The notes beneath the pieces are model-generated. The model saw only the letters and a list, made by a program, of their open reading frames with translations. It had not been told where the DNA came from and searched no databases. DNA of 63,922 bases, the filler included, from Reclinomonas americana ATCC 50394 (lineage: Eukaryota), in NCBI GenBank assembly GCA_048213135.1. It is 24 parts of 24 records of this genome, joined end to end, with 100 filler letters (N's around TTAATTAATTAA, not from the genome) between each part and the next. Parts side by side here need not be neighbours in the genome. Positions count along the whole stretch, not along the records: positions 42,053 to 45,187 come from AFZH01020102.1; positions 45,288 to 48,773 come from AFZH01020103.1; 22 more parts are not named here. The stretch is one strand, 5' to 3'. The translations under genes were made by a program, and so were the position numbers. Below, in pieces: positions 42,579 to 47,659 of the stretch; the stretch's first letter is position 1, and every line of letters begins with the position of its first letter.

Positions 42579-45328
42579 GTCCCCCTCTGGGCCAACCGCA
42601 CCGAGACCGAAGCCGACTCCACCAACGGCCGCCTCGTGGCCGTGCCCGCCGACACCCTCCTCGACAACTTTGCCAGTCGAACAAACCCCACCGACAAGGT
42701 CTTTTCCTCTCCTCCCTTCCCCTCTCACTCCGCTCACCCATCTCTTTCGCACACAGGTCCTGGTGGTCGCCGGCTGGTCCGGTGGTGGCAAATCGGTGCT
42801 GCTGCGACAGTTCACCGCACGCCTCACGCAGCGACCGGACACCCTGGTGCTGTCGGCGCGGCTGCCTGGCATTCCCGAGCGTGTGCTGCGCACCGCCGAC
42901 AAGTTGATGCCGTATCTGTTGCAGGAGAGCAACATGACGGTGACGGATGAAGCGCTGCACCTCACAGAGGATGAGGTGCGACTCGTGCTCTATTATTTCC
43001 ACTCCATTCTCTCTCCCCACCCTTGTCTCCACAGCTCCGCTCCATCGGCACCGTGGTCCTCGTTCTCGACGGCTACGACGAATGCGGCGACGCCATCGAC
43101 AATCTCTACGTGACGCACGGCCTCGATGTTCCGTTCCCCATCCGTCATACCTCCTTCTGTACGTCACTCACTCACTCCCCGTTCAGGCGTGGCACAACGT
43201 GCTGCTCGTCGTGTCCGTGCGACGCGAGTACATTAGTCGCATCGGCAACTTTTGGGCCGAGCAATGCTTTGTTCCCGTGAATCCACGCGCGGCGCGACAG
43301 CAACTGGGTATGCAGCCGGAACGCACACTTGCACGATGCATGCTGCGCCTGTTTGCGCTCGAGGACATTGATTTGTTCTTGCAAAAGTTCCGTCGCCCGG
43401 CATCACAGTAGTGCAGCGGCGATTTCCAACTCTCATCCCCTCCCCCGCAGATTCGTCGAGTCAAAGTCGGCCGGTAGCCGCGGCAGCGGTCCATGGACGC
43501 AGTATCGCGAGCAGATTGACCACATTCCTGGCCTCATCGACCTGGCGGCATCGGTGCGTCTGCTCGTGCATGCGTCTCGTTGACGATGCTGCGCTCACTA
43601 TGCGCAGCCCATCATGCTCAATATGATTGTGCTGGTGATGGAGGAGCTGCGGCGATTGGACGCCAGTCTGTGCCGCGTGACGCGGTCGCGTCTGTACGAG
43701 GCCTTTGCGAAGCACAAGGTGGCGTGGGAGATCGAACATCATCAGAGGGACATTGTCAAGGTGAGGCGGGAGAGGGAAGGGAGGAGGAGGAGGAGGGTGG
43801 AAGAGAGGAACAAGGAGATGCAGAATAACAAAGAAACAGAGCAACGGAGAAAGAGAGGCCCCGCTCATTATCAATTCCTCCAGTCTCTATCTTGCTTCAA
43901 CTTCCTGACGCAGCCCACCGTCATTCTTATCATTTCCACGCCTTTCACCTTCTCTGCAATATCGCAAACTTCTCGGCTCGTTCTTGCTTCAGCTCGCCAT
44001 CGCTGAGTCGGTTCAGCTGCACTCTCTTTTCCACCTGTCTCCACGCATCTTTCTCATGCTTCATTCATTCTCCACCTCTGTTTTCTCTCCTCCCATCTTC
44101 CCTACCCCTTCCACGTTTGCTCGTCCTCCCCTTTACGCTTTCTCTCTCTCCTCCGTCCACTTCCCCTTTCTCTTCCCCTTCTCCTCCCCCCACTTCTCTC
44201 TTTCCTTTCCCTTTCGCCCCCCTTCCCCCCTCTCTCTTCCCCTTTCCTTTCCTCTCTCCCTCTCCTTCCTCCCCTTTACGCTTTCTCTCTCTCCTCCATC
44301 CACTTTCCCTTTCTCTTCCCCTTCTCCTCTCCCCACTCCTCTCGCCTCTCCCTCCATCATGTCCTACTTCTCTCTTTCCTTTCCCTTTCGCCCCCTTCCC
44401 CGTCTCTCTTCCCCTTTCCTTCCTCTCTCCCTCTCCCACTCCCCTTCACGCTTTCTCTCTCTCCTCCATCCACTTCCCCTTTCTCTTCCCCTTCTCCTCT
44501 CCCCACTCCTCTCGCCTCTCCCTCCATCATGTCCTACTTCTCCCTTTCCTTTCCCTTTCGCCCCCTCCCCCTTCCCCCCTCCCCCTTTCCCTCATCTCTC
44601 CCTCTCCCCCTCCCCTTTACGCTTTCTCTCTCTCCTCCACCCACTTCCCCTTTCTCTTCCCCTTCTCCTCTCCCCACTTCTCTCTTTCCTTTCCCTTTCG
44701 CCCCTCCTATCCCCCTCTCTTCCCCTTTCCTTTTCCTTTCGCCCCCTCCCCCTTCCCCTCATCTCTCCCTTTCCCTCATCTCTCCCCCTCACTTCCCCCT
44801 TCCCCTTCCCGCAGTACCTCGGCGACGACGAAGCGCAACACTTCCCCTTCCGCGTTCGCGACCTGAGTGCAGAAGTTGCCGGTGGCATGATGCGGCACTC
44901 CCTCACAGCCATCAAGCAAATGGGCGTGCGTGCCATTCACGCAAACTCCCGATTGTGTACCCGTGTGTGTGTGTGGTACTTAAAAAATCACACCGTGCAG
45001 AATCGCGAGCGTCGACGACCGGCAGGCGACAGTCACGATGGCGGCGGCGGCGGCGATGAGGCGGAGCGGCACCTGTGGGAGACGTGGTTTGGTCGCGACG
45101 ATGCGCAGCAAAACGTCGTGATCCGTGCAGTTGCGTTCTTTGTATTTCTTCTCCGTGTGCCTGCGGTCAGCTCATTTCCTCTTTCAANNNNNNNNNNNNN
45201 NNNNNNNNNNNNNNNNNNNNNNNNNNNNNNNTTAATTAATTAANNNNNNNNNNNNNNNNNNNNNNNNNNNNNNNNNNNNNNNNNNNNACGGTACGGTACG
45301 GTACGTACGTACTCTCCTCCTCCTCCTC

Positions 45329-45377
<49 letters not shown>

Positions 45378-47659
45378 AATCCATCGTCACGCTGTCCCTT
45401 TCTTTGTAGGGCCTCAACTCGGTCCTCTCATTCGCCGCCGAGCACGTGCGACTCGACACCACGTTGCAGAGTGCGCTGTGGCACGTCATTGAGCTGTCGC
45501 GAAGGCGCACACCGGCGAACGAGTCGGTGTTGTCGGTGGTGTCGGCCAGCGCCGCCAGTGTCTTGTGCGCCGCTGGAGTGCCGTTCAGTGCGCGCGATCT
45601 CAGCAACTGCTCGCTGGTCGGCGCCGATTTGCGTGATGCAGTGATGCACAAGACGGTGCTCTGCGACGCCGACCTGCGCAATGTCAATCTGCTCTCGGCG
45701 TACTGCTCAGAGGCCGATGTTGGCGGCGCCAACTTGACGGGTGCTCGCTTGCCGCGAGGGGAAATCGACTACTTTAACTACTCGCTTAACTCTGTCGTCG
45801 TGTCGCCGGACAATCGGCTCATTGTTGCCAGCTGCCTGGATGGCTATGCGTACGTGTTCGCGCTGCAAGATGGCAAGCGACTCGTGATGTACGAAAAGCA
45901 TCGTGCCGAGGGCGACGGAGCCACGTGTGTCGCCGTCACACCTGACGGCGAGCGAGTGGTCAGCTTGTCGCGGCAGCTGAATGTTCACGTGTGGCACTCG
46001 GCCACTGGCGCACCAATACGAGCATTCCAGGTGCGCGGCAGCAAGCTGGCCGGCCAGAGCATGGCGCTGACCGCCGACGGCGAGTGCATGATCCTTGGCT
46101 TTACGCTGTGGTTGCTGGAGACGGGTGAGGTGGCGCATGCGGAGCGGTTTGCAGAGGTGCAAGAGCAAGAGTTGACGTGCATGAGCATCGTGCCTGGCAG
46201 TGCGCACATTGTTGCACTTGCCACTGACAGCACAGTGCGGGTGTGGGAGGTGGACACTGGTCGTGAAGTGCGTCGCGTGCACTGTGATGTGCCGGCCGGA
46301 TCAGGGGCGGTGACTGTCACTCGAGATCTGCGCTACGCAGTAATCTCGCACGCGGTCTTCTCCATGACCACTGGCGAGCTGGTGCGCAAGTTTGATGGTG
46401 TGTCCTTGATTGGCCTCTCGCCTGACAGCCAGCGGTTCGTGGCAACGCGCGGGCGCTCCATTCGTGTCTACGGTCTTGTCACGGGCGAAGAGTTGCGATG
46501 CTTTGTGGGGCACACTCGCTCTCTGGATGCGTGCTGCGTGTCGCCCGACGGTCAGTACATTATCAGCAGTGACGGTGGCCTCGAGGGCGACGAAGGCTCC
46601 TTCTTTGGAGCGATTCGCGTGTGGTCCACGGCGCAGGGTGACGAGATTCGGCGAGCGGTGTTCCCCGCGTTCGCGTCACTGGCCGTCACGCCAGACAGCC
46701 TGCATTTGGTCACGGGCGGCGACGACGACGTCGTGCGGGTGTGGTCGTGTGCCACTGGTGAGGAGGTGCGACGATTCCCCGGTGTCGGCGGCGAGGTGGC
46801 GTTGCTGCCAAAAGGGGCCGGCAGCCAGTGCACTCTGTGTGTCCTGAAACGGTGGCATAATGGTGGCGCGCTGTCGTTGTGGTCAATGGCCACGGGAGAG
46901 CAGCTGGGTTCGATTTCCTGCGACGGCGTGGTACTGGCGGTATCGCGTGATGGTCGCTTAGTGGCCACCGGCGGCGCACCGCCAGACTATGAGGTTTGCG
47001 TTTACGATGTCGCCGCCGATGATGGTGATGTTGACGGTGGTGGTGCCGGCGCTGGTGGCGAGCTGCTGCGGTTGCGGCACCGCATGAAGGAGCACAGGAA
47101 AACGGTCGAGATGGTGGACATTTCGCACGACGGCAAGTATGTCGTGAGTGCAGGAGGATACGATTGGCGAGCATTGGTGTGGTCGGTGGAGACGGGTGAG
47201 CTCGTGTGCACACTGGGTGACCGCGGTAGCCTTGTTATGGCCGCCGCTTTCACTCCCGACTCGCAATACGTGTACCTCGGCACGGCAAGTAGGTGGATGA
47301 ATGTGGAACGTTGGTCGGTGGCCTCCAAGAAGAGCGACGTGAAACTGAGTGGGCATACCGATACAACAACGACAGTGGCTGTCTCCAACGATGGAAAGTG
47401 GGTGGCCAGTGGCGGTGTCGACGGCTTCATGTCGGCAGTCTCGGTGGTGGATTCAGGGGCGCCGGCACTGTGTGTGAATGGTGGTCACACCATGACGGTC
47501 AGGGCCGTGTGCTTCTCGCCCGACAGTCGGCACATGTTCTCCTGCAGCGACGACGGCACCGTGTATGTGTGCGACATGGAGAAGCTGGTGGTGGAAAGAG
47601 TGCTTGGCGTGTACGCCGGCAACGGATGGAGCAGTGTTCGTTTGAAGAAGAACAAGTGA
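42579..47659 (+). CDS. NLR-like STAND protein: NACHT NTPase + pentapeptide repeats + WD40 repeats (N-terminus in the gap)
   Basis: Walker A VLVVAGWSGGGKS, Walker B VVLVLDGYDE, NLY, sensor-like LLVVSVRREY, PIML; then AASVLCAAGVPFSARDLSNCSLVGADLRDAVMHKTVLCDADLRNVNL pentapeptides and about a dozen WD40 repeats. Confidence 0.85.

Follow-up and report, generated by a model that had tools for sequence, protein, structure and literature searches.

We describe a candidate gene for a receptor-like protein, combining a NACHT NTPase, a pentapeptide-repeat β-helix and a WD40 array, in a 63,922-base stretch (the window) of the Reclinomonas americana ATCC 50394 genome assembly (GCA_048213135.1). The window is a chain of 24 pieces of 1.2 to 4.4 kb and not continuous sequence, and the gene falls on two of them: piece A (42053–45187) carries the NACHT half in small exons, and piece B (45288–48773) carries the pentapeptide repeats and the WD40 array, the sensor half, in one big exon. 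In the best explanation of the whole, A and B are probably the two ends, 5' and 3', of a single nuclear gene from an intron-rich eukaryote. What the DNA shows directly is the set of exons with their splice sites and phases, the three types of domain, the order and strand in which these lie, and a native base composition. Since an artificial linker lies between the halves, that they form one gene is something we infer; we regard it as likely, and a single mRNA would then contain both and bridge the break in the assembly.

Exons and domains of the two halves

Six exons, N0 to N5, lie on the plus strand of piece A between 42579 and 43760, with GT-AG borders and compatible phases. They are 120, 219, 75, 200 (or 221), 103 and 153 nt long and are separated by introns of 58, 59, 77, 64 (or 43) and 54 nt, all GT-AG, which bears out the close spacing of introns in the NACHT half, one every 100–250 nt, described in the initial annotation.

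42579–42698, plus strand: exon N0, 40 codons, ...DTLLDNFASRTNPTDK, immediately 5' of the P-loop exon and defined by its splice sites (acceptor ccctcccag/G at 42577–78, donor AAG/gtcttt at 42699, phase 0 into N1)
42757–42975, plus strand: exon N1, Walker A/P-loop (VLVVAGWSGGGKS...); GT-AG borders; NOD profile positions 9–43
43035–43109, plus strand: exon N2, Walker B (VLVLDGYDECGDAIDNLY); GT-AG, phase 0; profile positions 86–98
43187–43407 or 43187–43386, plus strand: exon N3, sensor-1 region (NVLLVVSVRREY ... LFALEDIDLFLQKF); profile positions 122–172
43451–43553, plus strand: exon N4 (...YREQIDHIPGLIDLAAS); acceptor cccccgcag/A, donor TCG/gtgcgt; profile positions 168–204
43608–43760, plus strand: exon N5 (PIMLNMIVLVMEEL...RSRLYEAFAKH...), end of the NACHT core; acceptor atgcgcag/C, donor AAG/gtgagg

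The introns of 54–77 nt in 42699–43607 have CTCAC-like motifs 15–30 nt before the acceptor, and their donors mostly read GTG(C/A)(G/C).

The Walker A pattern GxxxxGK[ST] occurs as GWSGGGKS in exon N1. Walker B, four hydrophobic residues and an aspartate together with further acidic residues, reads VLVLDGYDE in exon N2 and aligns with llDGfDE of the profile introduced below; the DGxDE form of Walker B is a NACHT signature, reportedly described by Koonin and Aravind in 2000. Because the Walker A lysine, the acids of the Walker B DGxDE and the sensor-1 arginine are all present, the NTPase looks active.

Since tblastn with 21 distant homologues at E 1e-3 gave no match in piece A, we built our own NOD profile from 20 full-length NACHT-pentapeptide-WD40 proteins, with 520 positions that start 15 residues ahead of Walker A and extend 90 residues past the start of the pentapeptide region. 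At least 17 of the 20 members carry PF05729, and the one that was checked, P0020, scored 33.9 bits with Pfam NACHT in the matching segment (cut-off 26.7). The spliced exons N1–N5 (250 residues) aligned to this profile as one stretch over positions 11–247 with 60.5 bits and a conditional E of 1.9e-20. Exon N3 has two alternative donors (43386/43387 or 43407), each phase-2 compatible with N4; ending the exon at 43386 gave the 60.5 bits, ending it at 43407 gave 55.7 bits. Taken alone, N5 matched positions 199–266 (E 1.6e-4). The open reading frames (ORFs) of N1–N5 matched the profile collinearly and ranked in the top eight when all six-frame pieces of A and B were scored, and no minus-strand piece of A and B fell below E 1. 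At E 10, tblastn with the 21 homologues likewise returned weak collinear matches to the NACHT exons. N0 is without homology support.

Piece B opens with the 3' end of an intron, followed by the big exon.

45288–45409, plus strand: 3' end of an intron, read from the sequence, with (ACGGT)n, (CTC)n, (CT)22.5, a polypyrimidine tract and a tag acceptor
45332–45376: CT array inside this intron end, before the big exon
45410–45571, plus strand: three helices, C-terminal part of the NOD module (AlphaFold2, local alignments)
45572–45766, plus strand: pentapeptide-repeat β-helix of about 13 pentads (Pfam PF00805; own profile positions 417–481, 45.8 bits)
45782–47608, plus strand: WD40 array of 13 predicted blades, then 17 residues and TGA (Pfam, AlphaFold2)

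The big exon is one open frame of 749 codons (2250 nt, 45410–47659, plus strand) that directly follows the 3' splice site ...ctttctttgtag and ends with a TGA stop at 47657–47659, in agreement with the single exon of about 2.25 kb that had been proposed for the pentapeptide and WD40 half. Its translation gave 39.6 bits for PF00805 (cut-off 20.2; best at residues 63–94) and 140.6 bits for the WD40 family PF00400 (cut-off 27) in six stretches, with four-stranded blades in the predicted structure. The motifs and the domain order of the initial annotation, running from GWSGGGKS and VLVLDGYDECGDAIDNLY to these two family matches, were all recovered. In the AlphaFold2 model (30-sequence alignment, mean predicted local distance difference test (pLDDT) 77.8, predicted template modelling score 0.44), helices occupy residues 2–15, 17–32 and 38–54 (pLDDT 75–96). 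The β-helix (about residues 55–115) shows one-residue strands every five residues over residues 62–112 (pLDDT 90–96), and the WD40 region comprises 52 strands, that is, 13 groups of four, together with a stretch predicted to be disordered (residues 295–329). The best solved structure for this model in Foldseek was 2ymu_A, a 'highly repetitive propeller structure' (E 1.5e-32).

The big exon opens at an acceptor and no ATG occurs in it earlier than codon 79, so that it requires an exon 5' of it. Residues 1–58 resemble the NOD helices lying ahead of the pentapeptide repeats in P0118 (Mortierella), P0092 and P0103, with z-scores of 4.9–6.3 in local alignments and none of 500 shuffles reaching the real score in any of the three cases, which indicates that the big exon starts inside the NOD module. 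Strand and order of both halves fit the NACHT-pentapeptide-WD40 architecture, and across the 64-kb window tblastn with the 21 homologues detected no NACHT or pentapeptide signal besides theirs. The GC content at third codon positions (GC3) is 0.77 in the NACHT exons and 0.725 in the big exon, compared with 0.74–0.85 in the CHD gene of the window, and this likeness was counted toward one gene. Among the collected matches, the three modules occur in single polypeptides of bacteria and Mortierella, and a published analysis, in the part of its text used here, likewise gives them as one polypeptide in Mortierellomycota (PMC11291939).

What separates the halves is the following element.

45188–45287, no strand: artificial linker between A and B, 44 N + TTAATTAATTAA + 44 N

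The identical N44-TTAATTAATTAA-N44 spacer occurs at 23 sites in the window (e.g. 41953–42052, 45188–45287, 8723–8822), and TTAATTAATTAA is a stop in all six reading frames. As every break is the same six-frame-stop linker, the apparent gaps are artificial joins and not sized scaffold gaps. Pieces on either side of such a linker can be true neighbours, as is seen in W2, a stand-alone WD40 gene that crosses the linker 20213–20312 in frame and within a codon, with ...SSDGQH and an A at the last base of one piece and TT and SCSDDHTIRVWSS... at the first bases of the next, and its tail beyond the linker is paralogous to the tail of the neighbouring gene W1. This was the one join that a gene allowed to be checked. 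Paralogous minus-strand ORFs in piece B and in the piece after it (66% identity) were also counted toward linkers joining neighbours.

From Walker A to the pentapeptide repeats, the 20 homologues span 395–513 residues; here, about 250 residues are seen in A and about 55 in B, leaving some 100–150 NOD codons unaccounted for. The winged-helix part presumably sits in the assembly break, which would then conceal about one or two exons. Neither the artificial linker nor these codons had been mentioned in the initial annotation, nor had a minisatellite-bearing interval of 1054 nt after N5.

Relatives and possible function

Proteins with NACHT (PF05729), PF00805 and WD40 were common among the matches and came from Planctomycetes, Sorangium, Microbispora, a cyanobacterium and three Mortierella entries. 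For the NOD part, the nearest collected relatives were P0092 and the Mortierella protein P0118, the latter being one of the two closest collected proteins to the NACHT part (21.1 bits). The sensor half reached 32–43% identity in its best matches among 1.8 billion representative proteins and 22–32% in a search for longer homologues; a search restricted to residues 1–135 was swamped by pentapeptide-rich proteins.

The closest published counterparts among eukaryotes are the NACHT-PPR-WD40 receptors (PPR, pentapeptide repeat) of Mortierellomycota, which are shared with Mycoavidus endosymbionts according to part of the report by Ciach et al. (Evol Lett 2024, PMC11291939). Represented here by P0118, P0053 and P0086, they have the same three modules in the same order and a eukaryotic host. 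Kinship with Mortierella and Mycoavidus, suggested by the initial annotation, agrees with this domain set; for the kinship with ciliates that it had also suggested, only a weak language-model lead (0.78) was obtained. In contrast to these receptors, the NACHT half described here is densely split by spliceosomal introns. Identity to the Mortierella proteins over the sensor half is only 22–24%, and the organism is not Mortierella-like in sequence, with no protein above about 43% identity among the 1.8 billion representatives.

Bacterial NACHT proteins such as P0020 (Planctomycetes), P0056, P0059 and P0091 (Sorangium) and P0084 (Microbispora) likewise combine NACHT, about 400 residues, a pentapeptide region and about 14 WD40 repeats in one protein; unlike the present gene, they are encoded by one ORF each and carry enzymes at the N-terminus (phosphoesterase, nucleoside phosphorylase and others). 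As far as the consulted part of their study goes, Kibby et al. (bioRxiv 10.1101/2022.07.19.500537) count β-propellers and pentapeptide repeats as sensor repeats in bacterial NACHT proteins and derive eukaryotic NACHTs several times from bacterial forms. A STAND survey (Nature 2026, PMC13581612) mentions WD40 sensors and, in the portion of its text at hand, not pentapeptide repeats. A full-text literature search returned no title or abstract opening on this architecture in protists.

Two further systems share part of the design. Apaf-1 (3sfz, 3shf, 3j2t) also places a STAND NTPase before a double WD40 propeller, and the big-exon model matched its chains in Foldseek with E-values of 2e-24 to 2e-26 at 16–17% identity; it differs in that its module is NB-ARC (AP-ATPase) instead of NACHT, in lacking the pentapeptide helix and in carrying a CARD effector. 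The fungal HET-E/NWD NLRs are eukaryotic, combine NACHT with a WD40 sensor and keep the sensor repeats in one exon. In these NLRs, the WD40 units are reportedly near-identical to each other and reshuffle, as is said of the 2014 work of Dyrka and colleagues and the 2007 work of Paoletti and colleagues. The present gene differs from them by the pentapeptide helix between NOD and WD40 and by its ten big-exon units, which average only 24–38% protein and 41–54% DNA identity to each other, so that the highly similar internal repeats that mark concerted evolution are not seen in the big exon. Taken together, we read the locus as a real eukaryotic representative, far diverged and probably a single gene, of a receptor-like architecture already described in publications on bacteria and Mortierellomycota.

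In full, the domain order would be an N-terminus, the NACHT NTPase, a helical NOD remainder, the pentapeptide β-helix and a WD40 double propeller of 13–14 blades. By analogy with its family, such a protein could work as a STAND/NLR-type switch: the WD40 propellers would bind a ligand, the pentapeptide helix would serve as a rigid spacer, ligand binding would free the NACHT module for nucleotide exchange and oligomerisation, and oligomerisation would bring the N-terminal parts together for an output. The family basis for this scheme includes the STAND NTPases, reportedly described by Leipe, Koonin and Aravind, and, from part of the text of Kibby et al. (bioRxiv 10.1101/2022.07.19.500537), the bacterial NACHT proteins.

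As to the N-terminus, no recognisable effector or signalling domain was found upstream of 42579 in piece A or in the piece 38367–41952; nine ORFs of the latter gave no Pfam family, and tblastn with the 21 homologues gave no match there at E<1. The initial annotation took the effector domain to be lost in the gap; an N-terminal domain may lie in unassembled sequence. In-frame ATGs are present at 42447 and 42486, in a CT-rich stretch upstream of N0, and a start at either could allow a short form without an effector.

A role in protist innate immunity, as raised by the initial annotation, is possible but unsupported and would follow from analogy. Regulatory or scaffolding roles have been suggested for some NACHT-WD40 proteins of eukaryotes, and it is conceivable, if rather unlikely, that the locus is one intact STAND gene of that kind and no immune receptor. 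That neither an effector domain nor a defence context was seen would suit such an NTPase, as would the ordinary, housekeeping-type neighbours (a CHD remodeller, an RRM protein and a helicase) and the old, diverged WD40 units, unlike the highly similar, fast-changing repeats of fungal allorecognition NLRs. By analogy, a receptor role is favoured by the closest architectures, those of bacterial NACHT proteins, a family described in part of the work of Kibby et al. as shown or predicted to act in defence, and by the Mortierella receptors, which the text drawn on from PMC11291939 discusses as related to immunity or symbiosis.

If the halves are one gene, the NACHT-pentapeptide-WD40 design, which has so far been catalogued from bacteria and whose eukaryotic reports concern mainly Mortierellomycota, would also occur in an unrelated intron-rich eukaryote, where it would have resided long enough to hold at least six spliceosomal introns and native codon usage. 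It would then give one data point on the number and age of the transfers that brought NACHT receptors from bacteria into eukaryotes. What is currently understood about NLR-type proteins stays as it is.

Single gene, juxtaposed genes or pseudogene

A 1054-nt interval, read as an intron, follows N5, the last secure NACHT exon.

44192–44790, no strand: pyrimidine-rich minisatellite with a period of 170 bp and 3.4 copies (Tandem Repeats Finder, 89–93% matches, score 817–836)
44815–44925, plus strand: putative exon N6 (YLGDDEAQHFPFRVRDLSAEVAGGMMRHSLTAIKQMG); acceptor cccgcag/T, donor GGC/gtgcgt, phase 0

Joining N6 to N5 let the local alignment with P0092 continue past the junction (score 50 vs 41; 1 of 300 shuffles equals it).

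Several observations weigh against a single receptor gene and are gathered here. Nothing physical or contiguous joins the halves, which the artificial linker separates. In 43761–45187, the winged-helix region (the F.H.S..E motif of the homologues; profile positions of about 250–360) was not found, and the candidate exons N6 and N7 brought no gain in profile score, so that N6 is weakly supported. The 58 residues at the start of the big exon gave no signal with P0053, P0020, P0056 and P0060, four of the seven homologues tested singly, and scored −0.2 bits against a mainly bacterial pre-pentapeptide profile, with 810 of 1969 shuffles as high. The NACHT part is very distant from everything collected, its best pairwise match among 490 proteins being 23.3 bits. 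In Pfam, the separate, unspliced exon ORFs gave no NACHT row and P-loop families below threshold only (AAA_22 24.3 with a cut-off of 27, AAA_16 21.8, nSTAND5 18.7), and PADLOC and NCBIfam returned nothing specific on them. Start codon, promoter and N-terminal domain of the gene are not defined, and receptor function is assigned by analogy. Lastly, since the piece 1–2325 is bacterial, the assembly mixes a eukaryote with a bacterium, either a contaminant or an associate.

Two distinct paralogous NLR-type genes, placed side by side through scaffolding or by the order of the file in a fragmented assembly rich in repeats, could produce the same picture. The linker and the 100–150 codons missing between the halves would both fit it, families of this type are often multi-copy, at least one foreign (bacterial) piece is present in the window, and the pieces break at microsatellites, typically ending at arrays such as (TCC)n and (CT)n. 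We nevertheless regard this as unlikely, given that the halves share strand and correct order, that no further NACHT or pentapeptide signal was detected in the 64 kb, that the W2 linker joins its pieces in frame, and that GC3 is similar in both halves.

Even less can be said for a decaying, non-functional NLR-type copy, which is quite improbable. The failure to find a start codon, an N-terminal domain or the winged-helix part, the 1-kb interval with its minisatellite after N5, the degenerate WD40 units (3.7–45 bits vs 49–90 bits for the units of W1 and W2) and the 35-residue stretch of predicted disorder in the propeller region would all be compatible with a pseudogene. Set against them are GT-AG borders that are intact and phases that agree in all six exons, the uninterrupted frame of 749 codons, the intact catalytic motifs and the confidently predicted fold of the helices, the β-helix and most blades.

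Intron content, stand-alone WD40 genes and the rest of the window

The two halves differ in intron content, with five internal introns in the 870 nt of N0–N5 vs none in the 2250 nt of the last exon; at equal density, a Poisson estimate puts such an asymmetry at about three in a million. The asymmetry is real and has ordinary explanations. Two stand-alone WD40 genes of the same repeat type are present in the window, and one unit of the big exon resembles their units most.

18098–19151, plus strand: W1, stand-alone WD40 gene of eight repeats starting MSLLRKCLHGH, related by repeat type
19372–20542, plus strand: W2, tandem paralogue of W1, which enters the linker 20213–20312 and resumes in frame in the next piece
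46673–46777, plus strand: WD40 unit, residues 422–456, the most W-like unit of the receptor (45.2 bits vs 3.7–29.1 for the other nine)

W1 has one intron or frame change near 18.5 kb. With one intron in about 1.05 kb of W1 and none in about 1.1 kb of W2, this repeat type is generally intron-poor here. Loss of 3' introns is a well-known pattern, and general intron poverty of this WD40 type in the genome together with 3'-biased intron loss would account for the intron-free sensor exon, which is most simply explained without a special exchange mechanism. Both genes consist of eight very regular 42-residue repeats, begin with MSLL(R/C)KCLHGH and share an acidic/hydrophobic C-terminal tail; the W2 array shares as much as 54% identity with the one in the planctomycete NACHT-pentapeptide-WD40 protein P0020.

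A unit profile made from five W2 units found ten units in the big exon at 3.7–45.2 bits and the W1/W2 units at 49–90 bits. The unit 46673–46777 is up to 68% (mean 56%) identical to the W units at the protein level, which is like the W units among themselves. At the DNA level, its identity to the W units averages 62.8% (maximum 67.6%), compared with a mean of 68.0% between W units (range 58–76%, 66 pairs) and 48–54% for the other nine big-exon units against the W units. In blastn, this unit matched the W genes at 18.1–20.2 kb with 70–82% identity over 43–93 nt. The best match had 47.3 bits, whereas 30 codon shuffles reached at most 28.3 bits, confirming at the DNA level the resemblance claimed by the initial annotation for a repeat at about 46680–46772. 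FastTree analysis of 71 units (42 columns) placed the unit next to W2 units, with local supports of 0.41–0.82, and three further big-exon units inside the W2-unit clade. The units had been aligned to the W2-derived profile, and such an alignment leans toward W-likeness. Some clustering of stand-alone and receptor repeats, as the initial annotation had expected, is therefore present in this tree, with weak support.

The likeness of the unit to W1 and W2 is real; at about 65% DNA identity, it points to a common origin or a conversion event long ago and not to a repeat pool still in operation. The initial annotation had gone further and seen in the sensor half an exchangeable module that shares a repeat pool with the stand-alone genes; the identities do not support this, with the best unit at 63% (maximum 68%) and the other nine at 48–54% DNA identity, and the unit DNA comparison showed no recent conversion tract between the big exon and W1/W2. 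That W1 and W2 are donor cassettes from which single blades are copied into the sensor exon by somatic or germline gene conversion, a scheme likened to cassette-based receptor diversification in other systems, with the unit 46673–46777 as an old trace of blade transfer, is highly improbable. The intron asymmetry and the stand-alone WD40 genes of the same type make this a concrete locus for the question whether sensor arrays evolve apart from the NTPase.

The other features of the window are listed below.

2–919, plus strand: AraC-family (AraC-type) regulator, on the piece 1–2325
999–1958, minus strand: Gcw_chp outer-membrane-type protein, on the piece 1–2325
4931–8440, plus strand: intron-split CHD-type chromatin remodeller with a chromo domain, a SNF2 domain and helicase C
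47894–48772 and 49621–50499, minus strand: proline/serine-rich ORFs of 293 codons each, on adjacent pieces downstream of the receptor gene

The piece 1–2325 is bacterial, with a GC content of 64.5% and without introns. The remaining pieces carry eukaryotic, intron-containing genes, among them those for the CHD-type remodeller, a Upf1-like helicase and proteins with RRM and EF-hand domains. That the big-exon piece might itself come from a bacterium was weighed and dismissed, given the splice acceptor and microsatellite before the exon, the missing start codon and the native composition; the downstream paralogue of a eukaryote-type low-complexity gene also opposes it. Its native base composition likewise led us to reject the idea that the sensor half was acquired horizontally in recent times. 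In a large collection, no protein of similar length exceeds 76% identity to the helicase-C exon of the CHD gene, so that the organism is without a close sequenced relative there.

Pfam gave no family in the one proline/serine-rich ORF examined. Both of these paralogous ORFs terminate with ...DPVP(E/Q)SDPEFPFLLRD, related stretches are found near 49184–49617 and 51008–51463, and together they may represent a tandem gene family or a repeated element.

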